Source: a phage
Direction: 5' to 3' (one strand)
Length of the DNA stretch: 64,000 bases
Sequence record: PV730299.1
The notes under the pieces were generated by a model that was not told the origin of the DNA, did no database searches, and saw nothing but the letters and a program-made list of their open reading frames with translations. Below are positions 3,106 to 20,853 of the stretch, in pieces. The position numbers were made by a program, and so were the translations under genes. Each line of letters opens with the position of its first letter. The stretch's first letter is position 1.

Positions 3106-3427
3106 TCCCCTTGTTGCTCTGGATATCAGCGACGGTGATACGTAAAGTGCGAACGTCGTCGGATAGACTGTTGCTATTGAGTTTCAACTCAGCAACGTTC
3201 TGCTTGACGTAGTTAACGTCTGTGTTTAACACAGCAATCTTCTCATTCATATCGTTCACCTTGGTGAGGATTAGGTCGACCTTGTTGGAGTCACGCTCAA
3301 CCACATCAAGGCGATTCTCAAATTTACCCATCATCCAAACAACCGAGCCAACAGAGACTATCGTCGCCGTCAGCACCCCGGTGAGGATCGCTTTCACATC
3401 GATCACAGTGTCAGTTTGGGTTGCCAT
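3089..3427 (-). CDS. small membrane / coiled-coil protein, 113 aa
   Basis: Start placed at internal ATG 3427 with AGGAGG RBS (ORF track extends to 3451); hydrophobic helix then heptad-like segment. Confidence 0.5.
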   Translation of the reverse strand: MATQTDTVIDVKAILTGVLTATIVSVGSVVWMMGKFENRLDVVERDSNKVDLILTKVNDMNEKIAVLNTDVNYVKQNVAELKLNSNSLSDDVRTLRITVADIQSNKGNGNGR

Positions 3428-3659
3428 CTTGGCCTCCTGACGGGAGTTCAATCCCGAGGTGTTCTGCCATGAGTTGTACCATCGCTGTCAGTTGATCTAT
3501 TTGCGCTGCCTGCGCTGCAATAGTTCTGTCCTTTTCTTCCTGATTTCGACGAGCGTTAAGTGCTGCCAAACCGGCAGCATTGTCTGTGCAGATGATAGCC
3601 CCAGGGCAAGAGCTACTTCTCATCATCGATGCATGCCCTTGTACTTTTACACCACGCAT
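3411..3659 (-). CDS. hypothetical protein, 82 aa
   Basis: ORF track; ATG preceded by GAGGA RBS and a GC hairpin. Confidence 0.5.
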   Translation of the reverse strand: MRGVKVQGHASMMRSSSCPGAIICTDNAAGLAALNARRNQEEKDRTIAAQAAQIDQLTAMVQLMAEHLGIELPSGGQDGNPN

Positions 3660-3708
3660 GATAATATCCTCTGTTAATGGCGGGGCAACCCCGCCTTGTT
3701 AATACTAC

Positions 3709-6700
3709 TTATGCCAGAGCAATCAAACGGAAATCTTTGAATGACGGCGGTGCTGTGCGGTTGCCTCTGACCAGCAGGCGGATCTTCAGGCCAACGAAAG
3801 GATTGGTGCTGTCTACAGTCTTGTCATACTCATATTCGAAGAATGTAGAACCGTCATTGACCAGAGGGGATGTCGGTGTCACAGTTTCCCATGCCACATC
3901 ATCCATCTCCTGGCCTGCGCGCAGCAGTTTAACTTGCACAGTCATTGAAGACTGAGAAGGTAGCATCGCGCCGAAGTATTGCTTCAGAGTGGTACAAGGG
4001 TTATCGAATCCGATATCCTTGGTCACATAGCTGAACACATCTTCAAACGGATCCACCCCGTAGGTGTTGAAGATGATAGTGAAATCATCACCGTCGATCA
4101 TTGGAGCCGTGTAGACATTACTCTCGTTGCGAGTCATGGTTGCACGAACCTGGAAGTCGCCCACCTGACGATAGATACCTTCCGTCGGCAGAGGCACGTC
4201 CGTATCGGATTCGAACTCAACCCAATCAGAGAATGAGTTGGAGGTCGCATCGCGATAGCGGTATTCCAGTTTCAACACAGATCCTTCCAGGGCTGAATTG
4301 GTGACGCTTGCGTAGAACATGTCTACCAAGTAGTTGCCTAGGAAAGAAGCCGCTTCACCACCAATCTGACCGTCGGAGTCGGCGTTGGAACTCAGAACGA
4401 ATTTGAACGTCGTGAACGTCGCATCAGTCACAGTGTGTTGAGCGTTCAGTTGCTCAGGAGTGAAACCGCAACCACCCGTCAACCCAGACAGAGTAACACT
4501 TTCACCCGCAGTCAGGCCATGCCCCGGAGCGTACACAGTAACAGTTGAAGAACCGTTGACACATTTCACGGTGTTCAGACCCAGAGGACGGATCTTCGGA
4601 CCGACTTTAGCATCGAAGGTCACGATGTTTGAACCAGCGGAGAAGTTGCAGCGATATACACGGAACTTCATATCGGCAGTCTGGTTTGGAGTCCAGGTCG
4701 TACCATTTGAAGATGTGAAGAACACGCCAGTGTACGGCTGTTTGGCAATGAACTCGTTGGTCAGCAAGTTCTTCTTGCCCATCTCTGCGATGTATGCGTT
4801 GTAGTCCTGAGTGTTGGCCAAGAGAACAATCGCGAACTCAGTCTGTGCCTGCAGATACACAGGATAATCAAACTTGAACATCGTTGGTACAGAAGAGTCT
4901 GTGGAGACGGAAACTTCTGATGGATTCAGAGTCTTACGAGTGACGACAGTCGTCGCTGGCAGACCATTGCTCATCTCGCGGATTTCCAGAGTGATCGGGA
5001 TATCACGGGACTTGGTAGAGAAGAAGACTTCGATGCCTTCGATGTATTCGCCGCCGATATTGGTGGCAACCATGAAGGACTGGGCGATAGGATCTTTCCA
5101 CTTCGCGACTTCAACCGTCTCTGTTTTGTTTTCCGTAGACTTGGTCGCAGTGTATCCCAGGACGCGGGTGTTGACATAAGTCTTCTGGATGCCCTGTTTC
5201 TTGCCGAAGGACTTATGAACAGCCTCAGCATTGGTCAGGGTATCATCAGCAGACTTGCTGTCCACAGGACTGTCAGTCAGACGGAAGACGTTGTCACCCG
5301 TGTTAAACTTGATAGTCTCGTTCTGAGGAACCGCAAACACACCTTTGATGTTGCCGTTGGCATCAGTGTTCAACGCACCACCCAGTACACCACCGTTTGG
5401 GGTACAGTACGCGCTCACATCACGTCCAGAGAAGAACGGATACACACGAGTGAACGGACGCAGCCCTGTGGCTTCGAAGTTGATGTTCGTTTTGCGCATG
5501 TATGGGATTACCTGCGTTTCAACGATCTGCTCGCCAGTCAGGGTAGTGGTCGTCTTGTCGGTGTACGTGTACGTGGTGACGTCACGGGTAGACACAGTCG
5601 TGCGGTAGCGATAGCCCCACCATACACCACCTGCACCATGCGGTTCCCACACACGCTCAGACACGGACACAGTACGCCATGTGCCATACACGGAACCTTC
5701 TTTGATCGCACCACGGGTGTTGATCGTTTCGTTGATCACACGTGGAGTAACATAGTAGTTCTCAAACCAGTAATCAGTAGTCGGGTTCAGCTTCAAGAAG
5801 CCTTCCCAGTTGAACACCGCATACGGGTTCACGTTGATGGTCGTGGTTGCATAGTCCTGGCGGACAGAGATCTCACGGGTGTAGTTGCATACAACCATGC
5901 CATCCTGAACGTTGTTCCAACCGACTGGCGTCAGGTCAATCGCGTTCTGCTGAACAAACGGACGCAGGCGACCATTGTCAGTGTCAATTGAACCCACCCA
6001 GTCTGCAGACAAATCGTCGATCAGACGGAAGTCTTTGAACGGGTCTGCTGCGATACCGTTCTTGAAGCGCGGGTTGCCAGTAATTGGATCGAACACCTGT
6101 TGTGACATCGCCGAGGATTCTAGCTGTGACAGTGAGGTGTAATATTCGACATTGGAGATACGGGTCTCCAGTTTACCGATATCGCGCATCGTGTAGCGGC
6201 GGTTGTCGATAGTACGAATCTGGATGTCGTCAATGTTGGCCGTGTAAGGCGGGATCATCAATTCATACAGGCGCATGCCGTTGTCTGGGATCGCAGGGGA
6301 AGCCAGGTTGTTGGAACTCACACCACGAGCAACGTTGAACACACCGTTGTCTGCCAGATACACAGCATCAATACGAGGCAGATAGTACTCTGCATCTAGG
6401 ATGATCGCGGTATTCGGGCGAACCATGTCCGTGTCCGACGCTCCGCTGGTGATCTTGGGACGGAAGTCCAGACTATCGGCCAACCCATACACAGTACCAG
6501 AACTGGATGAAACATAGTTCGGGATGTCTGGGTAGTTGATGGACGAATAGGAGTCCGCTGTGAAGAAATCACCAGAGCTGTGAGCGAAATACTGATACAC
6601 CACCGTGAACGTCCCTGAAATGGCTCCTGTGGACGATATGAGGTTAGAAAGGTAGTATGCAGCATCACGCTGACCGCCGTCCAGAGTGAAGTTAGAGGTG

Positions 6701-8547
6701 ACGTCAGCGCCATTTGCGTTCTTCACGCTGATCAGCTTGTAACCATCATGGTTCCCAAGTTGTGCGCTGGCTGCCGCAGTAAACGTCACAGTCTCGGTGA
6801 CTTCGGTAACAGTCTTGGTCTTGATCGTCGCTGTGGTGCGGACCATCAATGCCAACAGGTTGATAGACTGGTTGGCGTACCCCGCGCCCAGGGAAATCTG
6901 TAGTGCTGAACCAACCGGAGTACCAGCCAGGGACAGCCCCGAAGAGATATCAAACTGAGCTGCAGTGCCATCTGCTTTCGCTGCGGAGTACAGTGAAAAC
7001 TCAGGGCTGAAGCTGTAACCCAGAGGAGCGGAGATTGAGCCTGCACCAGCGGCGTTCAACGTGATCTTGTTTGACCGCAGGACAGTGTAGTTGATGTCGA
7101 TGGTGCCTGTAGGTGCTAGAGTCTTCACACCAAATACAGGCAGAGGGAAGATCAGGTCAATTGCTGAACTCTGACTGAACTGATTGGACTCCAGTTCGCA
7201 GGAGAACATCGTTGTACCGCTTTCTTCATAAGCGACTTTGGTCACCGTGCCCATGTCCCCAGTCACAACCAGGTCGCGCATATACAGACGGAATTCAGTA
7301 CCAGAGCGCTCTGCCGAAATCAGCAGGGCGGTGGCCTGCACATCGCTGGATGCGTTCAGGAACTTGTAGCGGATTGTGCGGGAGACAACCGGAACCCCTT
7401 TGGAGTTCTTGGACACCAGATAGTTGCCAGTCGAAACAGCCACAGGGTTGTTGTTCAGGATATCAGTGTCACGGGCTTTGTCAATTATGACCAGCTCTTC
7501 GCCGAGGTTTTCGATACGACGACCACGAACGTAGGAAATGCCTGGCTTCATAACCGCCACGAATTTGCTTTCGTCGCCACCTTCGGCCGGAGTGTATACG
7601 CCACCGTTGTTGTTCTCTTTCAGATGTTCGCGCAGGTCGATCTGGTGAGTAGAGACGTTGTAATCCCCGTTGGTCTCATAGGTACGCTGAGCCATGGCGT
7701 CTTCGAGGATGTTGTACGTTGACTGGGTGACCATGGACTGAATGCGACCGTCTTTCACCTTCGCCAGTTCAACGAAGTCGGCCACTTCTTCATCATAACC
7801 GTAGCGAGACAACACGAGGTCGACGCGCAGGCGATGCGCACCAGGGGCTTTAGAGTTCGGAGTACCCTGAGCATTGGAGAACAGACTTTCATCTTCTGCT
7901 TCGGTCACGATTGTTTCTGTCACTTTGAAGCCAATGCGGTGAGATGTAGAGTTCGATGCGTTGTCTACGATCAGAGTGGCTGGTTCAACATCCAGGAACA
8001 TACCACGAACGAAATAAACACCCTTTGTCATGCGAGCGACAATCGAACCGCCAACAGTATCGGCCACACCATAGCCGACACGGATGAAGTTATCGTTCAC
8101 GTCATAGGTGTTGAAGTATAGATTGTCACCAGCTTCGAAACCGTCTGAACTACCACTCTCAGTCATCTCTAAGATGGCATACATTGTATCCGGCTCAGCT
8201 GGATAACGTTCCAAGGACAGGACGCGTGCTTTCGCATTGTTGTCCTTGCCCAGAACATAGAGTTCGGAGATACCTTCCAGATCAGTGAACTCACTACCAC
8301 CAGCCAGAGTGAACTTCATGGACACAGCAGTATTGGTGATCGTTAGGCCGCCGGGGATAACCATTGAACCGTCTTTGAACAGATGGTTGCCAAGTTTCTC
8401 CAGTTGATCCTGGAAGATGGTCTGCATCTGGTTCAGTTCACGCGTCTGAACTTTGATAGGTGCCGGACGGAATAGGATGCGCGAAAAACGCTTCTCTGGA
8501 TTCCAGTCATCCCAATATGGGCGGCGATTGAGGTTCATTTCTTGCAT
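3709..8547 (-). CDS. large late structural protein, about 1612 aa, function unknown
   Basis: ORF track start 8595 is TTG; first in-frame ATG at 8547 has GGAG RBS and a CTAAATA-like motif about 35 nt upstream; Thr/Ser/Gly-rich composition. Confidence 0.7.
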   Translation of the reverse strand: MQEMNLNRRPYWDDWNPEKRFSRILFRPAPIKVQTRELNQMQTIFQDQLEKLGNHLFKDGSMVIPGGLTITNTAVSMKFTLAGGSEFTDLEGISELYVLGKDNNAKARVLSLERYPAEPDTMYAILEMTESGSSDGFEAGDNLYFNTYDVNDNFIRVGYGVADTVGGSIVARMTKGVYFVRGMFLDVEPATLIVDNASNSTSHRIGFKVTETIVTEAEDESLFSNAQGTPNSKAPGAHRLRVDLVLSRYGYDEEVADFVELAKVKDGRIQSMVTQSTYNILEDAMAQRTYETNGDYNVSTHQIDLREHLKENNNGGVYTPAEGGDESKFVAVMKPGISYVRGRRIENLGEELVIIDKARDTDILNNNPVAVSTGNYLVSKNSKGVPVVSRTIRYKFLNASSDVQATALLISAERSGTEFRLYMRDLVVTGDMGTVTKVAYEESGTTMFSCELESNQFSQSSAIDLIFPLPVFGVKTLAPTGTIDINYTVLRSNKITLNAAGAGSISAPLGYSFSPEFSLYSAAKADGTAAQFDISSGLSLAGTPVGSALQISLGAGYANQSINLLALMVRTTATIKTKTVTEVTETVTFTAAASAQLGNHDGYKLISVKNANGADVTSNFTLDGGQRDAAYYLSNLISSTGAISGTFTVVYQYFAHSSGDFFTADSYSSINYPDIPNYVSSSSGTVYGLADSLDFRPKITSGASDTDMVRPNTAIILDAEYYLPRIDAVYLADNGVFNVARGVSSNNLASPAIPDNGMRLYELMIPPYTANIDDIQIRTIDNRRYTMRDIGKLETRISNVEYYTSLSQLESSAMSQQVFDPITGNPRFKNGIAADPFKDFRLIDDLSADWVGSIDTDNGRLRPFVQQNAIDLTPVGWNNVQDGMVVCNYTREISVRQDYATTTINVNPYAVFNWEGFLKLNPTTDYWFENYYVTPRVINETINTRGAIKEGSVYGTWRTVSVSERVWEPHGAGGVWWGYRYRTTVSTRDVTTYTYTDKTTTTLTGEQIVETQVIPYMRKTNINFEATGLRPFTRVYPFFSGRDVSAYCTPNGGVLGGALNTDANGNIKGVFAVPQNETIKFNTGDNVFRLTDSPVDSKSADDTLTNAEAVHKSFGKKQGIQKTYVNTRVLGYTATKSTENKTETVEVAKWKDPIAQSFMVATNIGGEYIEGIEVFFSTKSRDIPITLEIREMSNGLPATTVVTRKTLNPSEVSVSTDSSVPTMFKFDYPVYLQAQTEFAIVLLANTQDYNAYIAEMGKKNLLTNEFIAKQPYTGVFFTSSNGTTWTPNQTADMKFRVYRCNFSAGSNIVTFDAKVGPKIRPLGLNTVKCVNGSSTVTVYAPGHGLTAGESVTLSGLTGGCGFTPEQLNAQHTVTDATFTTFKFVLSSNADSDGQIGGEAASFLGNYLVDMFYASVTNSALEGSVLKLEYRYRDATSNSFSDWVEFESDTDVPLPTEGIYRQVGDFQVRATMTRNESNVYTAPMIDGDDFTIIFNTYGVDPFEDVFSYVTKDIGFDNPCTTLKQYFGAMLPSQSSMTVQVKLLRAGQEMDDVAWETVTPTSPLVNDGSTFFEYEYDKTVDSTNPFVGLKIRLLVRGNRTAPPSFKDFRLIALA

Positions 8548-8581
8548 TTTGATGCTCCATCGATAGGTGCCATTATAGAGA

Positions 8582-8588
8582 TATTTAG
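8582..8588 (-). promoter_or_regulatory. late-promoter-like motif (ACTAAATA)
   Basis: About 35 nt upstream of ATG 8547. Confidence 0.45.
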
Positions 8589-8605
8589 TATACAACCAAC
8601 CGAGG

Positions 8606-8633
8606 AATAGAAAGAAATAAGCCCGAAGGGGCT
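8606..8633 (-). terminator. hairpin with U-tract on minus strand
   Basis: Stem AGCCC/GGGCT, loop GAAG, then TATTTCTTTC on minus strand. Confidence 0.35.
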
Positions 8634-8653
8634 TTGATTATCTTTCTGCGGTT

Positions 8654-8959
8654 ATGGTCATGGATTCGAGACCTCCGCATTCTTCAGGAACTATTGCAGG
8701 GGGTGCTGGTACAGCAAGAGAGTGGAGAACACAAACAAGACGAACCAATGGAATTACAGTAGTAGGTTCAGATGCTAGTGTTAAGGTACAGGGAACAGAC
8801 ATTGCTAACAGAGATAATGTATTAGCCACATACACACTTGGTTCAACCGATCCTTTCATGGTGAATGGTATTCAACTGGGTATGTTTAATATATCTGGCC
8901 AAGTAATTACTCTAACGGCAGTATCGGTTAGGGTAATACAAACAGTAAACTCTATATAA
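8654..8959 (+). CDS. possible small protein (101 aa) inside intergenic repeat copy 1; may be non-functional
   Basis: Only intact ORF among three homologous intergenic segments; copies 2 and 3 are frameshifted or truncated; no clear RBS. Confidence 0.25.
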   Translation: MVMDSRPPHSSGTIAGGAGTAREWRTQTRRTNGITVVGSDASVKVQGTDIANRDNVLATYTLGSTDPFMVNGIQLGMFNISGQVITLTAVSVRVIQTVNSI

Positions 8960-8970
8960 GAAATATTATT

Positions 8971-9004
8971 AATAAACAAAAGCTAACCCCGCAGAAGCGG
9001 GGTT
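8971..9004 (-). terminator. rho-independent terminator after the 733-aa tailspike gene
   Basis: 8-bp stem AACCCCGC/GCGGGGTT, loop AGAA, U-tracts on both strands. Confidence 0.65.
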
Positions 9005-9009
9005 ATGTT

Positions 9010-11211
9010 TTACTGAATAACAATACTACATTCAAGGTCTGAGATTACACCTGAATTGTTGTATGTCGTAATAGTCCATGATGTTGTTGATGTTTTATTA
9101 ACAACAACATACCTTCCAGTACCAGGCGAAGAAAAAGTGTAGCCTGCACGTGACATGTCAGTAGGGAAGTTGATGACCAAAACACCAACGGATGATTTAG
9201 TCGCGACACAACCCGTGGCAAGAGCAATCGCACCTGAAGAGTTGATATTAACTACGCACGGCGAACTTACCAGCTTAACCACACCAGAGTTGAGAGCATA
9301 TGTATCGTATACTGTGCCGATGCGGTTCATCCCAAGATAGGTCACCGCAGAAGAAGCCAATCCATCCCGGTTACGGAGCACGACAGACACACCAAGACCT
9401 GAGCAGTTAGTCACTTGCTGGTCAGAAACCATACCGGAAGTAGAACTGTATTGTTCAAGCACTGCGTCAACCGTGTTTGAACCGTTATAGCAGTTGAACG
9501 TTACATTTTCCAATCTGTTTCTTCGCACGCTTTTCCCGAAATCAGACCTAACATTACATATACGGTTATATTGTCCCGGTGTATTTATAATGACCATGCC
9601 GCCGCTGATAACGTTATCTAAGCAGTCTGTTAAAGAAATTTGATGGTCAAAGAAACCATAAGCACTTTTATAGTCACCGTTGTTTTGCATGAAGATCTGA
9701 ACATTTTCAAACCTGTTATTACTACATCCCTGAATTGCTAATACATGGTCGTTCCCATTAAAAGACCCATTAGCTACACTCGTGAACTTGCCACCTATAA
9801 CTTTACAGTTAGAGCACCCTCTAGAGAATTTAAGATTGTTATTACCGCCTACGGAGCCGTCAACGTTCCCCAAAACGGATGAATTCATAATACCCTCACA
9901 ATCTATGAATTTAAAATCCGTGGTCGGGAACCCAGTGCCATCTGCTGATGTGGCATGGAAGTTTATTAGTAGCCCGTTTTCTGCATATCCTTCTGACACA
10001 TAGCCACCTTTCACACCTAATATTTCCATGTTACCGCCAGCCCTTGATTGGCCTATAAATCTTGGAAATGTTATTTCAGGGTAAATTGCCCCTATTACTA
10101 CAAAATTGCCGTGGTTAGCTCCTTTGAAGCCTGTTCCGTCGAAGGTACAGCTGTTAGACCTTATTCCTTCCCTGCGTGAAGAGTCAGAGGCACCGTAAGA
10201 AGTATTTCCCATTCTCAATGGAGTTACCGATGTGCTAACGGTGTTGAACTTAATGCCTGAAACTTCCGTATAGTTACCGGTTAACTCAATCGCCCCTTTT
10301 GTGGTATCAAATGCTGAACCTGTCAAAGAGATCACAGCACCACCAATACCTATAATTCTTACACCGTCTGAAGAACTTATGACATTATTAGACAAAGAAA
10401 CTGGGATATCTATGTAGATGGTCTTGAAAGCCAATACTAGAGCGTTCATTAAGGAACTAACATCAGAACCAGAAGAAGTCCACTCTGAAATATAAGTTTC
10501 AATATGTCTGTTGTATTGCCTCAAAAACACAATTTCATCATCAACCACCACATGATCACGAGATAGTGATGAAATTACTCCGTTCACCTTGGGTTGCATC
10601 TCAAACAGTCCGTACTCAGTATTTATGAATGATGTCCCAGCAGGTATTGAGTCGCCAACATGAGCAACTTCAGACATGTTGAATGGATAAACGTTACCAC
10701 CAATCATTCTATTTCTTAAAAAATTAACGTCGCTTCTTACTACTGCATCCCCTACGCTAATCCATGCATAATGGCCTATACCACCAGTACTATCCGGGGT
10801 TGAACTAGCAGGTACAACTTTTGGAAGTTCTCCGCCCCATGAGTATTGCAATCCATTGTGGGTAAGTAACTCATTTCGAGTATTAACAGTAGAACCAGAA
10901 GTGAATGAACCAGGTAGTGTTACATATTCATTTCGCTCTGCTGCTAGTTCACCCAAATCAACAGTACCAGCTGAATGAACCAGGACTGCATGTTCATTGA
11001 GGCTTACAGCAGTAGTTCCTACAGGAAGTACAGGTAATGAGTAAGCACGTTGGGTAGACTTATCATAGATTACTTTGTAACCGCCTAAGTCTACACCTAC
11101 AGAAAAGTAGACTACTTCATTTTGCTTAACACCAAACTTACGGGCAATGGCTTGCTTATTGGTAAGAATACCAGTGGAGCCTTTACCACCTTGTGAGAAC
11201 ATTTCGTTCAT
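9010..11211 (-). CDS. tailspike protein, 733 aa, C-terminal region with beta-helix-like Gly/Asn/Ser-rich repeats
   Basis: N-terminal ~150-aa module (VVYFSVGVDLGGYKVIYDKSTQRAYSLP ... HSAGTVDLGELA ... NTRNELL) shared with three neighbouring genes; AAGAGG RBS. Confidence 0.8.
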   Translation of the reverse strand: MNEMFSQGGKGSTGILTNKQAIARKFGVKQNEVVYFSVGVDLGGYKVIYDKSTQRAYSLPVLPVGTTAVSLNEHAVLVHSAGTVDLGELAAERNEYVTLPGSFTSGSTVNTRNELLTHNGLQYSWGGELPKVVPASSTPDSTGGIGHYAWISVGDAVVRSDVNFLRNRMIGGNVYPFNMSEVAHVGDSIPAGTSFINTEYGLFEMQPKVNGVISSLSRDHVVVDDEIVFLRQYNRHIETYISEWTSSGSDVSSLMNALVLAFKTIYIDIPVSLSNNVISSSDGVRIIGIGGAVISLTGSAFDTTKGAIELTGNYTEVSGIKFNTVSTSVTPLRMGNTSYGASDSSRREGIRSNSCTFDGTGFKGANHGNFVVIGAIYPEITFPRFIGQSRAGGNMEILGVKGGYVSEGYAENGLLINFHATSADGTGFPTTDFKFIDCEGIMNSSVLGNVDGSVGGNNNLKFSRGCSNCKVIGGKFTSVANGSFNGNDHVLAIQGCSNNRFENVQIFMQNNGDYKSAYGFFDHQISLTDCLDNVISGGMVIINTPGQYNRICNVRSDFGKSVRRNRLENVTFNCYNGSNTVDAVLEQYSSTSGMVSDQQVTNCSGLGVSVVLRNRDGLASSAVTYLGMNRIGTVYDTYALNSGVVKLVSSPCVVNINSSGAIALATGCVATKSSVGVLVINFPTDMSRAGYTFSSPGTGRYVVVNKTSTTSWTITTYNNSGVISDLECSIVIQ

Positions 11212-11262
11212 AACGACCTCTTTGTTTTTCTAGTAAAGACCCTCCGAGGAGGGGGATTAATA

Positions 11263-13560
11263 TCACATAGTTAGCACACGTCTAACAATCAGAGAACCAG
11301 TAACGCCAGTAATAGACAGTCCTGTGGCAGTAAACCGACAGGACATATAACCAGTACCATCGCCAATATAGAGAGTTGTAGCATTTGTAACGTAATAGCT
11401 AATCTCATCTCTTGTGAATTTATATGGGGTTACTGGGTTATCCCCACTGGTATGAGTGATGTGGATTACCAACTCATTACAGTTTGCAATACCGGAAACT
11501 GTTATTGTAGAGGGTGCTGTTGCAACAGTAGTCCCCTCATAAGCAAGTGCTACTGGTTTAACACCACGTAAAAACTTAGGAGCACTCTGCACAGACCCGT
11601 AGATACCAACGTATGATACAGCACATACCTGCGACGGAGTTAAACCAGAACTGGCTTCTGTAGTTACCACATTAATTCGGTAAGCATTTATACGAGTAAT
11701 TTTACATACACCAAACCCAATGCCCGTATCGGCAAGTAATGCTGCTTCGTTGCTTATGGAGAAGGTTACATCAGAGTTATCAGGCATTGCTGCTGCAATT
11801 GTAGCTAGAGCAGAACCAGCAACCAACGATGCTGTATTAATGCCAAGCTCATCAAGAGAGTAGTAGCTAACCCAAAGGTTTTTTGGTACAGCACGTATTG
11901 CACTCCCCTCAGAATCTTCAGTAAAGATTACGGCATTAGTTGCAGAAGAACTACCGATATACTGTAAGAAAGACAGCTTACCTTCAAACCAAGACACTGC
12001 TTGTGGTTCATGTGAAGTAACTGTAATACCTCCAGCCAAAACGCCCATAGAGTTCCTACGGAACATTGCTCGCTCTATAACTTGACCAGTTAAGGAAACT
12101 TTAAAACAAGCCCAGTAATCATTCCATGTACCAGTAGAGGCAGCAGACCAAGAATTACCACAGGTAACGTACAAAAAACTTCCATCTGTAGTAATACCTT
12201 GTGGATACCCTGGCTTAACTAACTTACGGTCAATAGAGTTATCAGAGATAAAACCAGCGGTACGGCTAAGTACAGCAATACGAGTAATATTAGCTGTTGT
12301 ACCATCAGCATCCTGCAACTGGTAAATCAAATCTGTTTTACTGTCATAGCAGAAAGGAAAATCTTTCATAAAGCCAATACAGGCTACTTGGGAAGAAGTG
12401 CCTGCTGTGAAGTTAATTACAGTAATAGAACTGTTAGTAGCTCCCCCAATAAATACTTCACCAGACGAAAGAATACCAATACCTTGGCCGTGTGTACCAA
12501 ACGTACCTGGGAATGTTTCTTTGGCATTGGTAACTTTATTAATGCGGCTTAGGGTACAAGTGTAAGCACCACCAGAAGAAGTATCTTCTGTAATGTACCA
12601 ATAAGTGGCATCCTGGGCTAATCCTTGTGGATTAACTGATGCTACCATTACCTGGGAATAGTCTGGGGAATACTTAACAGGTATTGGTTTATAGATACTA
12701 TTCTTTAGAATCACTGATGTTTCTTCTAGTGTACCCAGCTCTTCTTGAACAGTCTTACCAGACTCAGTTCCAATAGTGGAAGCCCCTACATTTAAAGTGA
12801 GATTATCTTTAAACTCTTCTACAGAGCCTGGGACCGGTAAAAGGTCTACAATCACTGAACCGGGATTATAAGTCAGCTTACCATTGGCAACAGAATGGAT
12901 ATATACGTTAGAGGGTAATGTTGGTAATCCATATGCCTTCTGCTCACTAACAGAGTAAACAACCTTCTTACCATTGAGGTATTGAGTAGTATTAGAACTA
13001 AGGATTACTTCACTATCTTTAACGTTAGCAGTACGAGCGATTTCTTGAATACTTCGGTCAAACAACGGACTGATATTCGGTTGTTTAACAGACATTTCAG
13101 CGACTACCCAAACGCCTGCAGTCAGCGCAGTTTGTAAAGACACTTTCCCTGTCGTGCTGTCATAGGAATATTCAATTTCGGGTGTTTTGTACTCACCACC
13201 GATATAAAGAGATTGGACTCCATAAGATGTGTAATCAGGAGTGAACTCGGTTTCACCTCCTATAGCCTGAAACTTATAGATTCGAATCCCAGTTTTATAA
13301 TCTTCTGGAGACAGAATCTTATCAAACAGACAGAACACAACGTCACCTTTGGATAATGCGCGCCCGAGATTCAACGTATTTCCATCGATTTCGAAGTTGT
13401 CTAACGGAACTTGCACACCACCGTTGATTGTGACTATACCAGTGACAGGGTAGAAAGGGAGGGAGATAAACTTCTCTCCGCCCGTTGCTGTGTAAGTGTA
13501 TGGAATCTGGTGCGGAGCTGTTACGACCGCTCCAAAGATGCTCTCGACGTTTCTGGTCAT
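11263..13560 (-). CDS. tailspike protein, about 765 aa, N-terminal extension before the shared anchor module and a distinct C-terminal domain
   Basis: Shared module present internally; start set to ATG 13560 (ORF track 13575) to leave a normal leader after the CTAAATACCCC motif at 13597-13603. Confidence 0.75.
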   Translation of the reverse strand: MTRNVESIFGAVVTAPHQIPYTYTATGGEKFISLPFYPVTGIVTINGGVQVPLDNFEIDGNTLNLGRALSKGDVVFCLFDKILSPEDYKTGIRIYKFQAIGGETEFTPDYTSYGVQSLYIGGEYKTPEIEYSYDSTTGKVSLQTALTAGVWVVAEMSVKQPNISPLFDRSIQEIARTANVKDSEVILSSNTTQYLNGKKVVYSVSEQKAYGLPTLPSNVYIHSVANGKLTYNPGSVIVDLLPVPGSVEEFKDNLTLNVGASTIGTESGKTVQEELGTLEETSVILKNSIYKPIPVKYSPDYSQVMVASVNPQGLAQDATYWYITEDTSSGGAYTCTLSRINKVTNAKETFPGTFGTHGQGIGILSSGEVFIGGATNSSITVINFTAGTSSQVACIGFMKDFPFCYDSKTDLIYQLQDADGTTANITRIAVLSRTAGFISDNSIDRKLVKPGYPQGITTDGSFLYVTCGNSWSAASTGTWNDYWACFKVSLTGQVIERAMFRRNSMGVLAGGITVTSHEPQAVSWFEGKLSFLQYIGSSSATNAVIFTEDSEGSAIRAVPKNLWVSYYSLDELGINTASLVAGSALATIAAAMPDNSDVTFSISNEAALLADTGIGFGVCKITRINAYRINVVTTEASSGLTPSQVCAVSYVGIYGSVQSAPKFLRGVKPVALAYEGTTVATAPSTITVSGIANCNELVIHITHTSGDNPVTPYKFTRDEISYYVTNATTLYIGDGTGYMSCRFTATGLSITGVTGSLIVRRVLTM

Positions 13561-13596
13561 TTGAAGATACCCCATAGAGGATTTGCCAATATGGGG

Positions 13597-13603
13597 TATT
13601 TAG
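13597..13603 (-). promoter_or_regulatory. late-promoter-like motif CTAAATACCCC with inverted partner
   Basis: Upstream of ATG 13560; TACCCCATA / TATGGGGTA inverted repeat. Confidence 0.5.
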
Positions 13604-13863
13604 TCTGAACTAATAAAATTTATGAACAAAGGTATAACAAGACGAACCAATGGAACTATGGTAGTGGGTTCAGACGCTAGTGCAAAACGGACATTGCTAA
13701 CAGAGATAACGTATTAACCACACACTTGGTTCACATGGTAGATGGTATTCAGTTAGGTATGTTTATATATCCGGACAAGTAATCACCTTAACGACAGTGT
13801 CAGTTAGGGTGATGCAAACAGTGAACTCTATATAAGAAAAGCCCCCGAATTGGGGGCTTATTT
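13604..13863. repeat. inter-tailspike repeat segment, copy 2 (frameshifted)
   Basis: Same block with indels breaking the copy-1 frame; shares GGTATTTAG-CTGAACTAATAAA-TTTATGAACAAAGGTATAACAAGA with copy 3. Confidence 0.7.
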
Positions 13864-13866
13864 TTA
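13840..13866 (-). terminator. rho-independent terminator after the 768-aa tailspike gene
   Basis: Stem AGCCCCC/GGGGGCT, loop GAATT, T-run. Confidence 0.65.
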
Positions 13867-16170
13867 TACCACAGGTACTCCATTAACTCTAAATTCTTCT
13901 GTGCCGTTACTTGTACCGACGCCGCCGTTGGAAAACCGGTTTGGCGTAGCGGCATCGTAGTAGTTAGGTTCTACCTTGGCTACGCTGGTGCCGGTTGTCC
14001 TTGCGAAACGGTGCGCGTTAATGCAGCCGAAGAACTGGTTATTTCCCCACGGGAATATTGTTGTGGTATCCACATAGGTGTTGTACCACAACCCGTATGC
14101 AAAACCATAAATTTGATTCCCTCTTATATTTATGTTTTGCCCGTTTTGGTTTACCCGAATAGCGCAGTTTGATGTTGAGTCCGTAGAAGTACCATGGATT
14201 TCGTTGTTTTTAATATTTGCGCGAATTACGCCGCTAGACACAAATATTCCGTAACCGTCAGTCACGCGCTCAATACGACATCCGTCAATAGTATGCAACC
14301 GGAATAGTGTTGCGCCGCCTTTTGGCTCAAGAAAAATTCCAGCGCCAGTAGGTTCTATGCTTCTGTGCCCAATAACCATTACGTTAACCGATTCTGTCGC
14401 TATATGCACACCGTAGCCCGCGGAACCCTTATCAACACAGTTAGCTATTGTCAGCTTACCTGTACCTACAGAATCCTGAATTTTATACGCACCGTTATTA
14501 GCGTTGGCGAACCCTTCCACATAACAGTTGTTGATCATGTCTCCGTCCACTACGTCACCAAACAGAATACCAGCACCGATGTTGTCTTGATTTATACCAA
14601 AACCGCAATCGTACACGGAAACATTAGAGACTGTTGCTGGTTGGTATCGAACAGCTCCATCCAGGCCGCCGGACCGATATAAGCCCGTCCACCCTTTATC
14701 ACGGATGATAACATTGCTGACTTTTATGCCACCGCCGTATGTCTGATTGGAGTTGTAACCTATCGTAATTCCGTGACGAGCTTTAATATCTGAACGAGTC
14801 TTTGGCGTAAAATCTGTGGCGTCATACGTGAAACAGCGCCCATTGCTAATTAATATGTTTCTCCCAAAAGATAGAGAGTTTACGGAAATGCTCTGGCTGC
14901 CGTCAGAAAGACACGCAAAATTAGTTATACTGCATGATTTCGCCAACCCGGCGTTAGAAGTCCACTCAACCAAATCACCGCCAGAGGAGAATAGCGGGGA
15001 GCCGTCCCAATCATTTCGCCACCCAACAAAACCATCTATGGTCATGCTGTTGACTTCGAACCACATGACACCAGCGTTTTTCCATCCCTCACAACGGATA
15101 TCATTTAACGTAACTTCACGGCTACCTGCGATGTAAAAACCGTTTGCTTTATTTCTGTCCGTGGCTGTTAGCGAATAATCACCAAACGATTCCAGCCCTT
15201 CGATAATTATTCTGCGGGATGTGTCTTGTGGGAGTTCCACACCGTTTACGTTAGCTACAGTAGTCATCAGCCGCATTCCTTTAGCATCAATGTATTGTGG
15301 ATACGCTGGCGGTGATGGAATTAAGGCAGTTGTTTTATAAAAGACACCAACGGAACCGATACAGTGCTGCTGAGATGCCCATCTGTTAAGTGCCACGCCA
15401 TTATCAAATGATGGGTCATTAGGTATGCATCCACACTCTTCTGGTGTTAACCTGCCACGTTTAATGTTAATCCATCGACCAGCGCCAGTTACTGACGAAG
15501 GTTGAATAACCGAGAACCCATCATCGGCGGTTGTCGCAAGTGGGTGCCACTGAAAAATCCCACCGCCTACGTTATACCCAGCCAGGAAACTACGGACTAC
15601 CACTCTGTCTCCGTCAGAAAAAGGGGATAAATCGACTAAGGCTTTTAATGCCGCCACTGAAGGGAATGACCCTATTAGCGCTGCGCCTTGCTCAGATTTA
15701 AGGTCGTCGCGTAAATACGGGTCTGTCTGTGGTTTCCAATTAGCGTTTCCTACCGGGTCGGTTTCTGTAGAAATAGTTATGGGGAGGGAACCTAAGTAGG
15801 TGTAACCTATACCATTATGAAACAGTAACTCATTTCGAGTATTCACGACTAAACCGGCATCAAACGAGTCGGATAGGTTCACGAATTCTCTACGTGTAGC
15901 AGCCAGTTCACCTAAATCAACTGTGCCTGCGGAATGAACCAGGATTGCCTGTTCGTTCAGACTTATCGCAGTCGTTCCTGAAACAATACCTGAAGGAAGA
16001 GAATAAGCCCGTTGGGTAGACTCATCATAAATTACTTTAAATCCACTGAGATCAATATCAGAAGAGAAATAAACGACTTCGTCTTCTTTGACACCGAAAT
16101 TTCGAGCGATAGATTGTTTGTTAACTTCTATGGAAGTGGAGCCACGTGGTTGATTGAATTGAGAAATCAT
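13864..16170 (-). CDS. tailspike protein, 768 aa, beta-helix-like C-terminal domain
   Basis: N-terminal module highly similar to the 733-aa paralogue; CTAAATACCCC motif 30 nt upstream; hairpin terminator downstream. Confidence 0.8.
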   Translation of the reverse strand: MISQFNQPRGSTSIEVNKQSIARNFGVKEDEVVYFSSDIDLSGFKVIYDESTQRAYSLPSGIVSGTTAISLNEQAILVHSAGTVDLGELAATRREFVNLSDSFDAGLVVNTRNELLFHNGIGYTYLGSLPITISTETDPVGNANWKPQTDPYLRDDLKSEQGAALIGSFPSVAALKALVDLSPFSDGDRVVVRSFLAGYNVGGGIFQWHPLATTADDGFSVIQPSSVTGAGRWINIKRGRLTPEECGCIPNDPSFDNGVALNRWASQQHCIGSVGVFYKTTALIPSPPAYPQYIDAKGMRLMTTVANVNGVELPQDTSRRIIIEGLESFGDYSLTATDRNKANGFYIAGSREVTLNDIRCEGWKNAGVMWFEVNSMTIDGFVGWRNDWDGSPLFSSGGDLVEWTSNAGLAKSCSITNFACLSDGSQSISVNSLSFGRNILISNGRCFTYDATDFTPKTRSDIKARHGITIGYNSNQTYGGGIKVSNVIIRDKGWTGLYRSGGLDGAVRYQPATVSNVSVYDCGFGINQDNIGAGILFGDVVDGDMINNCYVEGFANANNGAYKIQDSVGTGKLTIANCVDKGSAGYGVHIATESVNVMVIGHRSIEPTGAGIFLEPKGGATLFRLHTIDGCRIERVTDGYGIFVSSGVIRANIKNNEIHGTSTDSTSNCAIRVNQNGQNINIRGNQIYGFAYGLWYNTYVDTTTIFPWGNNQFFGCINAHRFARTTGTSVAKVEPNYYDAATPNRFSNGGVGTSNGTEEFRVNGVPVV

Positions 16171-16203
16171 GATAATACCCCATAAAGGATGACCAATATG
16201 GGG

Positions 16204-16210
16204 TATTTAG
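16204..16210 (-). promoter_or_regulatory. late-promoter-like motif CTAAATACCCC with inverted partner
   Basis: 30 nt upstream of ATG 16170. Confidence 0.5.
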
Positions 16211-16466
16211 GCTGAACTAATAAATTTATGAACAAAGGTATAACAAGAACCCTGCCGAAGAGGGGGTTTGATTTTACTCTCCAAAATCACGATTACATGT
16301 GTAACCCCTAACAATTGTTGTGGATGGTATTCAGTTGGGTATGTTTAATATCTCAGGGCAAGTAATCACCATAACAGCAGTGTTAGTTAAGGTAATGCAA
16401 ACAGTAAACTCTATATAAAAAGTATCATTAGTAGGTAAAACTAACCCCGCCTGAGCGGGGTTGTTT
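16211..16466. repeat. inter-tailspike repeat segment, copy 3 (5' and 3' parts only)
   Basis: 3' part 16318-16430 could encode DGIQLGMFNISGQVITITAVLVKVMQTVNSI, matching the copy-1 C-terminus. Confidence 0.65.
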
Positions 16467-16468
16467 TT
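16443..16468 (-). terminator. rho-independent terminator after the 1047-aa tailspike gene
   Basis: Stem AACCCCGC/GCGGGGTT, loop CTGA, T-run overlapping stop codon. Confidence 0.65.
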
Positions 16469-19400
16469 ACATTGCGCTACCGTCTGCGTACTTCCATGCC
16501 TGAGCGTAAGCATCAAAGAAAGCAGGTTTCTTAGTATCAGTGTTATATATAACATGTCCATAACCGAGTAATGCCTTGTTCACCGCGTTTATTTGCGAAG
16601 TTGTTCCTGCTTTAATAATGCCTACATATCCTGCTGACTGGAGAACCCAGTTAGAGCCAGTCCAAGTAATCATTGTAGCTGAATCTGTTTGGTAGAATTT
16701 AAGACCTTCACGAAGTCTAGTGGGTCTGCCAGTAGATAAACCAACTACTGGATACCCATCTTCATCTTCCCACAATCCAGCTCCTGCACATCTTATGAAT
16801 TTAAGAAAGCTAGGGTCGTAGTATGAGAACCCTACAATTGCGGTAGCCGTGTAATCCTTCCACACCGCCGTGTTATCAAGACCCCGTACTTTTACATTCT
16901 GGACAGTAGCGCCGGATGCATTCAGTGGGTTCTGAGTGTTAACAGCATTACGACATGATATATCAATGTATGTGTATGTTGGAGCCATTTCACGAGTAAT
17001 GTTCTGGAACCCCTGATAATAGCAAGATTCTGACCTAAAACTTTCAGTTCGTATGCGGTCTGTTTTTGGATAGTAAACAGCTAACGCATTCACCGTCGCA
17101 AATGCCTCGTTTACATACGAACTTCCAACATCACTAACCCTATACGTGTTACGCCACTCTGCACCATTACTTATCCCTGCAACTGCCTCACGCATACGGA
17201 AATGGTTGTCAGCCATTTGTAATTCATCAACGTACCATGTTGCGTCTGGGTCCGCTGAGGCTTCATTTTGACCCGCAATAATAATACCTCTTGCATAAGT
17301 ACGTGCGCGGTTGTTATCAATACGGATATTTTCTATACTTTGGGATTTATGCAGCGTAACAAGACAGAATCCATATCCACCACGTAATGTGTTATGATGA
17401 AGATGTACTCGGTTTGTACCAATGAATTTAAAGCAAATTTCAACTGAAGTTTCAGCTGTTTCTGTGGTGTAGTCACGCATCACTGCCGTGTTGTTGTAGA
17501 CGAAAGCCTGACGTGTGGCACCCGTCCCGTCAGCTTGACTAGAACAATAAACCGCATGTCGATCAAGCGGAGCCCCTGAAACACCAAAGATACAACTGTC
17601 AACTGACACCAACTCACAATCAATTGGCACAGTGCCGTAACCGTATACACCCGCACTCCAGTCTTGAGACGCAAGTTGCTGGAAAACATTGTAATACTTA
17701 ACCCCATAACAAATATGAAGCTGGGCGGTAACTGTGTTTACACATGCGCTGATATTCCTCATCTCTGAGCTTTCATAATGTGCGTAAACGTTATTTACCG
17801 TAATCCCTACAACAGCCCGACCTACACCGCGAACTTTACCACCGTCTATCTTGACTTTAGTGGTTACACTTTCCACTCCCGTTCCGTCAAAAGTAAGAAT
17901 TTGATAATACGTGTTGGTATCCGTTGGAGTGAAGTTAATCCATCCGTCTGGGGTGGAGATTATTTTAATATCCTTTCCATTTAGAGATTTTCTAATTGGT
18001 GTTGTTATATTTTGCACACTATCAATAAGAACATCCGCATCGTTAGCAAGTGCGGTCTCTATAGCTGCCAGTAAAGATCCTGCTTCCGATGTCTTGACAA
18101 GCCCCCTTACTCCACCTATCAGAGAAAATCCATTATTTTTTAATAAATTACTACGCAAAGATGTGTCACCAACACTAACCCAAGCACCTAAATCAACGCC
18201 ACCAGAATTTTCTGGAGTTGAGCCAGCAGAAACTTCTTTAGGTAACACCCCATCCCAGCGATACTTACCATCAGCAAAGACAACCAGTTCGTTCTTAGTA
18301 TTAACAGTTACACCTGTTTCAAATGTCCCGGACAATGTGACGTACTCTTCACGAGATACAGCCAATTCCCCGAGATCTACAGAACCCGCTGAATGCACAA
18401 GTACAGCGGAAGGACTAAGACTGACAGCAGTAGTACCAGGGACAATATCAGCAGGCAAGGGATAAGCCCTTTGCGTCTCCTTGTCATAAATAACTTTATA
18501 CCCACTTAACGCAGCACCAACACTAAAATAAACGACCTCTGTATCTTTAACATTGGCTACACGAGCCACTTCCCGCAAAGTATAATCAATTTGATTATAG
18601 ATGTTTGGTGTTCCATTGATAATTACAACAACTTCATCTTCTGGTTCCAGTTCTTGTGCAAGAGAGATTTTACTGGTTAATGGATCGAATGTGAATCCCA
18701 GATTTTTATACTGGCGACTTCCGTTTATATCAATGGCCGGAACATCATCAACAACGACGTCCAACGTGATTTCGGTTTCACCGCCAATCGCTGAACCCCC
18801 ATTATAGACCCAGGTAATCGTAGAAGAACCAGAACCACCGACATTACCCAATTGAATAGGAGTATATTCAATCACCTGAAGTTCTGTGTTGGCTGGCAAA
18901 GAAGGACTGAAAGTGATTACATTCCCATCTAGTGAATATTTGGATTCCGCAAGACGTTTTCCGTCAGCATACACGTCCACAATTGTTGGTGGAGTATTGA
19001 GATTGACAGTACTTGTTTCAGACGCCAAAATTTTTGTAAAGATTTCACGACTGTAGACACGACCTTGGCCAAGACCGACGCCGGATGTAATAATCCAACC
19101 TTGTTCAGGTCCTGACCAAGTGAACGTTGCTGATACGTTATCAGTTGTTATAGCCATGTCTTCAGTGGAGCCATACAAATTATTCCCAGAAGGAGACACG
19201 GTCAATGGGTAAGTGGCAAATTTCCCATAAGCGTCACAAATAGTAACAGAATCCCCAACGCGCGTAGGGGAAGGGAGAACCACTGTAGATACCCCTGTGG
19301 TATTATTAATGAGATAGCCTCGCCCTCCAGTGAGCGTTGCCGTAGAGGCATGCGGAAGGACTTCCCAGCGGATACCACCGCCACCCAGCGGCAACCATCC

Positions 19401-19610
19401 ACCATTTTCATAGAAGCCCTCAAATTCGTCGGAGTCGGCATTGTAGCGAACGGAAGACGGGAGTCCTGCGCTGGCATTACCCTCGGGTAAAGTCAGGACA
19501 GCATCTGGTCCATGCTCAATCGTACCCGTGTTGAGGACACCAGCCAAAGTAGACTGCTCTTCAGCCGCCAGACCGAGAGGGAAAACAGGCTGTGTTGGTT
19601 TATTAGCCAT
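16467..19610 (-). CDS. tailspike protein, about 1047 aa, with ~350-aa N-terminal extension (likely baseplate attachment)
   Basis: Shared anchor module internal; start moved to ATG 19610 (MANKPTQ) because ORF-track ATG at 19640 lies 4 nt from the promoter motif. Confidence 0.75.
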   Translation of the reverse strand: MANKPTQPVFPLGLAAEEQSTLAGVLNTGTIEHGPDAVLTLPEGNASAGLPSSVRYNADSDEFEGFYENGGWLPLGGGGIRWEVLPHASTATLTGGRGYLINNTTGVSTVVLPSPTRVGDSVTICDAYGKFATYPLTVSPSGNNLYGSTEDMAITTDNVSATFTWSGPEQGWIITSGVGLGQGRVYSREIFTKILASETSTVNLNTPPTIVDVYADGKRLAESKYSLDGNVITFSPSLPANTELQVIEYTPIQLGNVGGSGSSTITWVYNGGSAIGGETEITLDVVVDDVPAIDINGSRQYKNLGFTFDPLTSKISLAQELEPEDEVVVIINGTPNIYNQIDYTLREVARVANVKDTEVVYFSVGAALSGYKVIYDKETQRAYPLPADIVPGTTAVSLSPSAVLVHSAGSVDLGELAVSREEYVTLSGTFETGVTVNTKNELVVFADGKYRWDGVLPKEVSAGSTPENSGGVDLGAWVSVGDTSLRSNLLKNNGFSLIGGVRGLVKTSEAGSLLAAIETALANDADVLIDSVQNITTPIRKSLNGKDIKIISTPDGWINFTPTDTNTYYQILTFDGTGVESVTTKVKIDGGKVRGVGRAVVGITVNNVYAHYESSEMRNISACVNTVTAQLHICYGVKYYNVFQQLASQDWSAGVYGYGTVPIDCELVSVDSCIFGVSGAPLDRHAVYCSSQADGTGATRQAFVYNNTAVMRDYTTETAETSVEICFKFIGTNRVHLHHNTLRGGYGFCLVTLHKSQSIENIRIDNNRARTYARGIIIAGQNEASADPDATWYVDELQMADNHFRMREAVAGISNGAEWRNTYRVSDVGSSYVNEAFATVNALAVYYPKTDRIRTESFRSESCYYQGFQNITREMAPTYTYIDISCRNAVNTQNPLNASGATVQNVKVRGLDNTAVWKDYTATAIVGFSYYDPSFLKFIRCAGAGLWEDEDGYPVVGLSTGRPTRLREGLKFYQTDSATMITWTGSNWVLQSAGYVGIIKAGTTSQINAVNKALLGYGHVIYNTDTKKPAFFDAYAQAWKYADGSAM

Positions 19611-19647
19611 TTCAAATACCCCTAAATGTGTTCGTTTCATCTAGGGG

Positions 19648-19654
19648 TATTTAG
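19648..19654 (-). promoter_or_regulatory. late-promoter-like motif CTAAATACCCC with inverted partner
   Basis: 34 nt upstream of ATG 19610. Confidence 0.5.
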
Positions 19655-19662
19655 TTTTCACT

Positions 19663-20853
19663 TTAGAAAGAAGCTACAATAGAATAATCGACCGAACAAG
19701 CAGTTGTTGTATTCGCATTAACAACGGAAATTCTCAATTTACCACCCACCACAGCCCCTGTGAACGTCACTGTACCGCTCGTACTTTTCTGAACCAACAA
19801 CTCCGATTTGATCGTTCCGTCGCGAGTTATGGTTACTCGATATGTATCAACAACGTTACCTGTTCCCCATTGCGCGGTCACCAGTATTTGACAAAGGTTC
19901 ACCAAATCAAAATCTGGAAGAGCCGTCGTCCCAGAAGCCGAAACCGTGTAAGAAGACAAATTCGTTTTGGTACGATAAACGGCGTTCCCTAAACTATTGT
20001 CGACAGAGGTCATCTTGGCATTATACGTTGATACACTAACTTTATCACTGGAAAGAGAACTGATGCTGTTATCCAGAGATGTCATCTTCGTGTTGTACGT
20101 GCTGACCTCGACTTTATTACCCAGAGACGTATTGATATTGGAGATACTCAAATCCAACGACGCCATCTTAGTGTTGTAAGTCGATGTGTTGACTTTCCCG
20201 TTCAACGATGTGTTGATGTTATTAATCTGGGACTCTAGACTCAGCATATCTGCGTCATACGCTGTCTTTGTCACATATCCATTAAATCGGTTATCTGCAA
20301 ACAACGCATCAAAAAATGCAGTCATTGTCCAATAACGTGCTCCAGAATCTGTTTGTACTGGAATTGAAGTCGGCATCGTTGATCCGGTATACGCAGACAA
20401 TCTGGTGAAATCCAAATTGAATTTGTAATATCCGGATGCCAACAACTCCCCAGCCAAACCAGAACCAGGTGGGGTAGTGTCTTCACTGACACCATGCTTT
20501 CTCAACATGCTCAGGTTAACACCATCTGTCGCTACTATAGGCTCATCCGCGATAGACAGTTTCTTTCCAGCCGGAACAGTCAGGCCGCCGTTGGCTGTCA
20601 ACAACGCAGCAAAAGTCTTGTTCCCGTTGATCGTTTGTTCACCACCGTCGGTGCGGATCACTTTGTTTTCCAGTGTGTCGTAGATATTATCCACAGAACG
20701 CTTCAGCTCGTATGTCAAATGAGCTGAAGGAGGGAACAACGGATCATCAACAGCGAAATCGTTGACAACATCAGTCTTGCTTATTTTGTCGTCAACAGAA
20801 GAAAGGATTGCATCAATCTGCTGACCTGTGTATCGACTCAGAAAATCGGCCAT
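19663..20853 (-). CDS. tail fibre-like protein with tandem ~20-aa repeats, 396 aa
   Basis: AAGGAG RBS; repeated STYNTKM-SLD-SIS-INTSLGNKV units in the central region. Confidence 0.6.
   Translation of the reverse strand: MADFLSRYTGQQIDAILSSVDDKISKTDVVNDFAVDDPLFPPSAHLTYELKRSVDNIYDTLENKVIRTDGGEQTINGNKTFAALLTANGGLTVPAGKKLSIADEPIVATDGVNLSMLRKHGVSEDTTPPGSGLAGELLASGYYKFNLDFTRLSAYTGSTMPTSIPVQTDSGARYWTMTAFFDALFADNRFNGYVTKTAYDADMLSLESQINNINTSLNGKVNTSTYNTKMASLDLSISNINTSLGNKVEVSTYNTKMTSLDNSISSLSSDKVSVSTYNAKMTSVDNSLGNAVYRTKTNLSSYTVSASGTTALPDFDLVNLCQILVTAQWGTGNVVDTYRVTITRDGTIKSELLVQKSTSGTVTFTGAVVGGKLRISVVNANTTTACSVDYSIVASF
19986..20256 (-). repeat. in-frame tandem repeats (~60 bp units) inside fibre-like gene
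   Basis: Repeated protein units STYNTKM-SLD-SIS-INTSLGNKV with matching nucleotide periodicity. Confidence 0.55.

Follow-up and report, generated by a model that had tools for sequence, protein, structure and literature searches.

The closest described relatives of the locus reported here are the tailspike clusters of the Kuttervirus CBA120, whose tailspike proteins TSP1-4 are encoded by orf210-213, and of the Agtrevirus AV101, whose TSP1-4 recognize Escherichia coli O8, O82, O153 and O159. In CBA120, TSP1, TSP3 and TSP4 carry the domains D1 and D2 and TSP2 carries D1 alone (Chao et al., PMC8825819). The N-terminal regions of CBA120 TSP2 (~170 residues) and TSP4 (~340 residues) consist of XD2-XD3 and of an anchor domain (AD) plus XD1-XD2-XD3, respectively (PMC8825819). 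According to the binding map of this complex, AD of TSP4 contacts the baseplate, XD2 contacts TSP2 and XD3 the TSP1 head, and the TSP3 head binds to the TSP2:TSP4 complex (PMC8825819). Here, we analyzed a stretch of phage DNA of 64,000 nucleotides (sequence record PV730299.1; the whole stretch is called the window) and identified four adjacent minus-strand genes, by position and homology, as a tsp4-tsp3-tsp2-tsp1 cluster. With a probability of about 0.9, this cluster is the Agtrevirus set for a CBA120-like branched receptor-binding complex, in which each spike has its own distinct receptor-binding domain.

In the window, tsp1 occupies positions 9010-11211 (733 amino acids, aa), tsp2 positions 11263-13560 (765 aa), tsp3 positions 13864-16170 (768 aa) and tsp4 positions 16467-19610 (1047 aa). 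The initial annotation, which was made from the sequence alone, had listed four adjacent minus-strand genes of 733, ~765, 768 and ~1047 aa, and these values agree with our data when the starts are placed where residue 1 of the CBA120 proteins aligns. The open reading frames (ORFs) of tsp2 and tsp4 reach 13575 (770 aa from the first ATG) and 19640 (1057 aa), respectively. However, residue 1 of CBA120 TSP2 aligns with Met6 (at 13560) of the 770-aa ORF and residue 1 of CBA120 TSP4 with Met11 (at 19610) of the 1057-aa ORF, and the same conserved leader precedes both internal ATGs. Thus, proteins of 765 and 1047 aa are the likely products. The conserved flanks of the cluster are a vriC-like gene (DUF4815; 3709-8595, minus strand) and, on the baseplate side upstream of tsp4, a conserved gene for 396 aa (19663-20853, minus strand), which is the equivalent of CBA120 orf215. 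The resulting order (vriC, tsp1, tsp2, tsp3, tsp4, orf215-like gene, baseplate genes) is the tandem tsp arrangement of Ackermannviridae, and the position of the cluster between vriC and the baseplate genes is syntenic with CBA120, AV101 and vB_CECAV_050. Outside the cluster, a conserved stretch of 22 kb shows 96-97% DNA identity over 87-98% of its length to three Escherichia phages (A221, ZQ1 and PC3) and to the Salmonella phage vB_CECAV_050, the last of which is classified as Ackermannviridae, Aglimvirinae, Agtrevirus. On the similarity over this stretch, we assign the source phage to Agtrevirus (Ackermannviridae).

A link to CBA120 was found in the N-terminal modules. The initial annotation had proposed a block of ~150 aa shared by all four proteins, and pairwise BLASTP recovered it in three of them: the 733-, 768- and 1057-aa proteins have 158-165 aa in common at 47-59% identity (E 2.5e-37 to 4.8e-49). 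With the 733- and 768-aa proteins, the 770-aa protein has no more in common than the first 45-56 aa of the block (VVY..YxLP part, E ~6e-7), without the HSAGTVDLGELA...NTRNELL part, and its similarity to the 1057-aa protein concerns a different stretch of 154 residues (XD3 plus D1; 36% identity, E 8.5e-17). This distribution is itself the CBA120 pattern because CBA120 TSP2 has D1 only. The block in the three proteins lies far above chance level, and low-complexity noise as its origin was rejected because of the E-values, which range from 1e-37 to 1e-49, and because of matches to the Pfam family Tail_spike_N (PF18668), which was passed by two of the three full-block proteins, TSP1 among them.

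Two of the proteins had been predicted to carry N-terminal extensions suited to docking, and both extensions are present. The D1 module begins at residue ~177 of the 770-aa protein and at residue ~356 of the 1057-aa protein. TSP4 residues 11-348 match the crystal structures of CBA120 TSP4-N (7rej/7rfo; 7rej E 4.5e-194), and the D1-D2 head that follows matches 5w6h. TSP2 residues 6-290 match CBA120 TSP2 (6w4q, E 1.8e-129). For TSP1 and TSP3, the first ~165 residues match 4oj5 (E 2.3e-70) and 6nw9/5w6f (E 3.6e-58), respectively. Hence, TSP4 carries the anchor domain plus XD1-XD2-XD3 (~18576-19610) and then a D1-D2 head (18111-18575). TSP2 carries XD2-XD3 (~13048-13560) and D1 only (~12811-13047), with D2 being absent, and both TSP1 (10717-11211) and TSP3 (~15676-16170) start straight at the D1-D2 head. 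This allocation of D1-D2 and D1-only proteins is the published CBA120 domain plan (PMC8825819). Comparison with Ackermannviridae TSP1-4, which the initial annotation had proposed as a check, gave identities to CBA120 of 82% for TSP4 (residues 1-513), 72% for TSP2 (residues 1-288), 61% for the TSP3 head and 62% for the TSP1 head. Thus, gene order, flanks, the distribution of AD, XD1-3, D1 and D2 and the N-terminal modules (61-82%) are alike in the two phages, whereas the genus differs and none of the four receptor-binding domains is related to those of CBA120. To AV101, our locus is related by its genus-level backbone and layout, by TSP1 (78% over the full length) and by the N-termini of TSP2 (86%) and TSP4 (90%), but the receptor-binding domains of TSP2, TSP3 and TSP4 are unrelated to their AV101 counterparts.

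The C-terminal domains of the four proteins had been expected to differ, and neither BLASTP nor profile-profile comparison detected any mutual relationship. A common origin of the four receptor-binding domains was therefore rejected. The initial annotation had also ascribed a beta-helix-like composition to several of them, which holds for TSP4 by its structural model and for TSP3 and TSP1 through their homologues, but not for TSP2, which is a beta-propeller instead. When the TSP2, TSP3 and TSP4 domain profiles were compared with PDB sequences, only the N-terminal adaptors of homologues were matched, plus a D3'-like segment for TSP3.

For residues 511-1057 of TSP4 (receptor-binding domain at 16470-18110), an AlphaFold model calculated from 27 sequences reached a predicted local distance difference test score (pLDDT) of 93.6 and a predicted template modelling score (pTM) of 0.87. 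Foldseek aligned this model with the right-handed beta-helix tailspikes of HK620, CBA120 (TSP3), Det7 (gp208), 9NA and P22, and also with polygalacturonases. The proposed structural check on this domain thus returned a beta-helix, and we are confident that the modelled receptor-binding domain of TSP4 is HK620/P22-like. The receptor-binding part of TSP3 (D3'-like domain plus beta-helix, 13867-15675) belongs to a homologue set that includes a 768-aa protein of equal architecture and many P22-type tailspikes of E. coli prophages. These homologues, at 88-92% identity, pass the threshold of the Pfam family Beta_helix (PF13229), and the TSP3 profile matches CBA120 TSP2 and K2 tailspikes in their D3' region. 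A beta-helix is therefore supported for TSP3 via its close homologues. TSP1 (receptor-binding domain at 9013-10716) is 78% identical to AV101 TSP1 across all 733 residues and 80% identical in the receptor-binding domain. For AV101 TSP1, activity on E. coli O8 has been shown and a beta-helix has been modelled (Sørensen et al., PMC10791037), and TSP subtypes have been defined by a cut-off of 75% (PMC8432352), which the 78% identity exceeds. These data support a beta-helix fold for TSP1 and its place in the subtype of AV101 TSP1 and, since the homologue is O8-active and the subtype cut-off is passed, E. coli O8 is the predicted TSP1 receptor, by inference only.

TSP2 is different. Its receptor-binding domain is a five-bladed beta-propeller (~11881-12678), which is followed by further C-terminal domains (11266-11880); CBA120 TSP2, in contrast, ends in a beta-helix. 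A five-bladed propeller platform is also present in the receptor-binding proteins of Staphylococcus phage phi11 (Gp45) and of P68 (tail fibre), and TSP2 resembles this type at the fold level only. The sequence identity to TSP2 is ~12-15%, the N-terminal attachment modules are wholly different, common ancestry is not established, and the hosts of these phages are Gram-positive with teichoic acid as ligand. Since a profile search against PDB sequences did not detect sequence homology of the TSP2 domain to phi11 Gp45-type proteins, we do not claim that they form one protein family. The propeller family of TSP2 is rare: 1.84 billion representatives include just 22 clusters of it at 50% identity. 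Acidic and Gln residues at the centre of the propeller are invariant. Our literature search retrieved no relevant paper linking Ackermannviridae with a beta-propeller.

What the propeller does can be read in two ways. TSP2 may bind its receptor rather than cleave it. Alternatively, the propeller might be an enzyme of a five-bladed class (e.g., GH43), acting as a lyase or glycoside hydrolase, and all four spikes would then be depolymerases as in CBA120. We regard this alternative as a serious one with somewhat less than even odds. TSP2 falls outside the beta-helix rule and, therefore, a depolymerase function is unsupported for this spike. The protein encoded at positions 4142-6454 of vB_CECAV_050, which is 98% identical and the homologue of window positions 11263-13575, carries the GenBank note "has colonic acid degradation activity". 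Our data gave no support for this activity and we did not use it for TSP2, since the PHROG matches cover the N-terminal 317 residues only and have generic names; the note is probably an automatic annotation transfer. As a tentative proposal, to which we give rather low credence, the TSP2 C-terminus could represent an undescribed class of receptor-binding domain in enterobacterial phages, a phi11-like five-bladed propeller that would recognize a surface glycan and lack the canonical beta-helix depolymerase. It would move as a cassette between Ackermannviridae and G7C-like podophages via the D1/D2 heads as 5' arm, with terminator and podophage-gene remnants marking each insertion as 3' arm.

The origin of the cassettes can be followed at the DNA level, and the nearest relatives differ for each receptor-binding domain. 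That of TSP1 is closest to AV101, that of TSP2 to vB_CECAV_050 (98.8%) and Gamaleyavirus PD205 (93.5%), that of TSP3 to Kayfunavirus PDP351P3/P4 (88%) and E. coli prophages, and that of TSP4 to the last tailspike of Gamaleyavirus KKP 3715 (89.6% protein identity). These domains recur behind P22-type (PF09008), T7-type (PF03906) and G7C/TSP1-type (PF18668) adaptors. Window positions 13060-10782 are colinear with the gp66-like/gp63.1-like gene pair of PD205 (3236-5516; 83.9% over 2290 nt), and this block spans the tsp2 D1, the propeller domain, a 51-nt spacer and the tsp1 D1-D2 head. Because of this colinearity, the tsp2-tsp1 pair behaves like a counterpart of the two-spike module in the podophage. 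Positions 18134-16443 match the last tailspike gene of KKP 3715 (84.2% over 1692 nt), from the end of the tsp4 D2 to the stop codon and the terminator hairpin. From the ends of the matched blocks it follows that the 5' junctions lie in conserved head modules and the 3' junctions in the terminator or in the head that comes next. Such positions fit homologous recombination through conserved sequences, by which TSP domain swapping has been proposed before (PMC10791037; PMC8432352).

The receptor-binding cassettes are exchanged horizontally, notably with G7C-like podophages (Gamaleyavirus, Schitoviridae). According to the recombination model, the conserved D1/D2 head sequences would serve as 5' homology arm and either the head of the next gene or the terminator plus gene-fragment flank as 3' arm. 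The gp66/gp63.1 spikes of these podophages follow the D1/D2 (PF18668) and XD2-XD3 docking logic found in our locus, but their virions are podoviral, with two spikes and without a TSP4-type AD-XD1 anchor. The GC content is 0.42-0.46 across the tailspike cluster (window 8001-20000) versus 0.48-0.53 in the remaining window, which fits a foreign origin of the receptor-binding cassettes.

Behind tsp1, tsp3 and tsp4, the gene borders have a composite structure: right after each stop codon there is a hairpin with a 9-bp G+C stem, followed by a repeat. The hairpin 3' of tsp1 (8984-9005) is G+C-rich with T-runs on both strands and is terminator-like in both directions. Equivalent hairpins lie directly 3' of tsp3 (13839-13859) and directly 3' of tsp4 (16442-16463), the latter being common to Gamaleyavirus UE-S5b and KKP 3715. 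Terminator-like sites numbered 19, compared with 9.7 expected by chance. This repeat corresponds to the 3'-terminal part of the Gamaleyavirus gene Bp4 orf14 (217 aa; annotated in UE-S5b as "tail needle knob"). Its coding strand was settled by the homology to Bp4 orf14, since codon periodicity cannot discriminate between two candidate frames whose third codon positions coincide. In Gamaleyavirus, orf14 is convergent with the last tailspike gene, and the G7C-like podophages keep it at full length (217 aa), whereas only fragments are present here, all on the plus strand. Copy 1 (8684-8963; gene positions 379-658) corresponds to the last 91 residues of the podophage protein (91% amino-acid identity, E 4e-58). 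Copy 2 (13636-13866; gene positions 429-683) contains frameshifts and deletions, and copy 3 (16320-16421; gene positions 556-657) comprises only ~34 codons. The gaps with terminator hairpins and foreign gene fragments measure 288-414 nt, and those of CBA120 are ~50-110 nt without such elements. The fragments are also absent from vB_CECAV_050, and AV101 has one 49-nt orf14 remnant.

The three copies represent one gene that is truncated at its 5' end to different, nested extents, and all of them reach its stop codon. They are 82-87% similar among themselves and 85-90% similar to the podophage gene. Since the copies are no closer to one another than to the podophage gene, an intragenomic duplication is not favored. 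The fragments are probably scars of cassette transfer between Schitoviridae and Ackermannviridae, and they possibly are also reusable 3' homology arms. In favor of the repeats being functional small genes or regulatory elements instead of recombination scars are the intact 101-aa ORF with its own ATG that copy 1 retains (8654-8959) and the conservation of the repeat element (84-92%) in no fewer than eight genomes of the Agtrevirus type. We consider this explanation unlikely, as the element is unannotated in most genomes and as the frameshifts of copy 2, the shortness of copy 3, the nested truncations of a single Gamaleyavirus gene and the similarity values just given speak against it.

The 5' sides of the genes carry another recurrent element. 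The motif CTAAATACCCC, which has been listed as an Ackermannviridae regulatory motif (PMC7283392), occurs six times in the window versus 0.5 expected. Three copies, each with a hairpin, precede tailspike starts on the minus strand: that of tsp4 (19613-19654, motif 19644-19654; -21 kcal/mol, z -7.2), that of tsp3 (16174-16210, motif 16200-16210; -19.6 kcal/mol, z -4.3) and the Met6 start of tsp2 (13567-13603, motif 13593-13603; -16.3 kcal/mol, z -3.7). The further copies are located at 29157-29167 (plus strand), 29256-29266 (plus strand) and 26918-26928 (minus strand, one mismatch). In four copies, CTAAATACCCC forms the 5' arm of a stable hairpin by pairing with GGGGTAT, which lies 13-21 nt further downstream, with energies of -16 to -21 kcal/mol and z values of -3.7 to -7.2. 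These four hairpins end 2-6 nt before a start codon that lacks a canonical Shine-Dalgarno sequence, and the stem extensions vary between copies yet remain paired. Late promoter, stabilizer of the 5' untranslated region and translation-initiation structure are candidate roles of the motif. A scan for sigma-70 promoters was not above chance (21 found vs 25.8 expected), and the T4 late promoter TATAAATA was not enriched (2 vs 1.1 expected).

The CTAAATACCCC motifs together with the three terminator-like hairpins suggest three expression units (tsp4, tsp3 and tsp2-tsp1), which would be transcription units with CTAAATACCCC in front and a hairpin at the end of each. As a separate observation, tsp2 and tsp3 both have a conserved ~70-nt leader in front (TTGTTATACCTTTGTTCATAAATTT(T)ATTAGTTCAG.CTAAATACCCC...; window 13586-13650 and 16193-16256, minus strand). 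Within the window it occurs at these two genes only, and it is also present in AV101 and vB_CECAV_050 (92-94% identity).

Judging from the homology to CBA120, the four proteins would each be trimeric and together form one branched receptor-binding complex per baseplate site. The AD domain of TSP4 would anchor the complex to the baseplate. TSP2 would attach to XD2 of TSP4 with its N-terminus, which bears an XD2 as well, TSP1 would attach to XD3 of TSP4 with its D1-D2 head, and the TSP3 head would dock on the TSP2:TSP4 complex. In such a complex, TSP1 would target O8, TSP3 and TSP4 would contribute putative depolymerase-type beta-helix domains, and TSP2 would present its propeller with the distal domains. 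As each spike has a different receptor-binding domain, we propose that the phage may adsorb to up to four surface polysaccharides. The initial annotation had predicted a CBA120-type multi-tailspike apparatus, and every feature of it that can be tested in the sequence is present, the beta-helix rule for TSP2 excepted.

Several points weigh against this conclusion. The assembly and activity of these proteins rest on homology, the folds of TSP1 and TSP3 are taken from homologues and not from models of these sequences, and the TSP2 domain violates the beta-helix rule. Scans of the four isolated C-terminal domains with Pfam and NCBIfam (E<=10) returned nothing meaningful. Moreover, the O8 prediction relies on 80% identity and few substitutions can alter specificity, and the promoter role of CTAAATACCCC is putative. 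That the four proteins attach to the baseplate independently, or that only some of them are incorporated so that a CBA120-type branched complex is absent, is nevertheless highly improbable: the branched assembly is predicted here from the genes and the Agtrevirus N-termini differ from those of Kuttervirus (61-82% identity), but the docking domains AD, XD1-3 and D1-D2 sit in the same proteins as in CBA120, Agtrevirus AV101 forms a star-like complex in transmission electron microscopy (PMC10791037), and AV101 tsp2 works within a Kuttervirus complex (PMC11721090).

This type of receptor-binding system is already well described by the structural work on CBA120, by the AV101 study and by surveys of Ackermannviridae, and the new element is the combination of four cassettes. 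The raw sequence holds a textbook multi-tailspike apparatus and, therefore, adds little at the conceptual level. For host-range prediction and phage engineering, the locus is of value as a new cassette set with one member of predicted O8-type. Only two points go beyond the literature that we consulted, namely the presence of a propeller domain in the tsp2 slot and the scars formed by gene fragments. Taken together, the DNA junctions and the leftover fragments document cassette traffic between Ackermannviridae and Schitoviridae, and they suggest natural homology arms for tailspike swapping.

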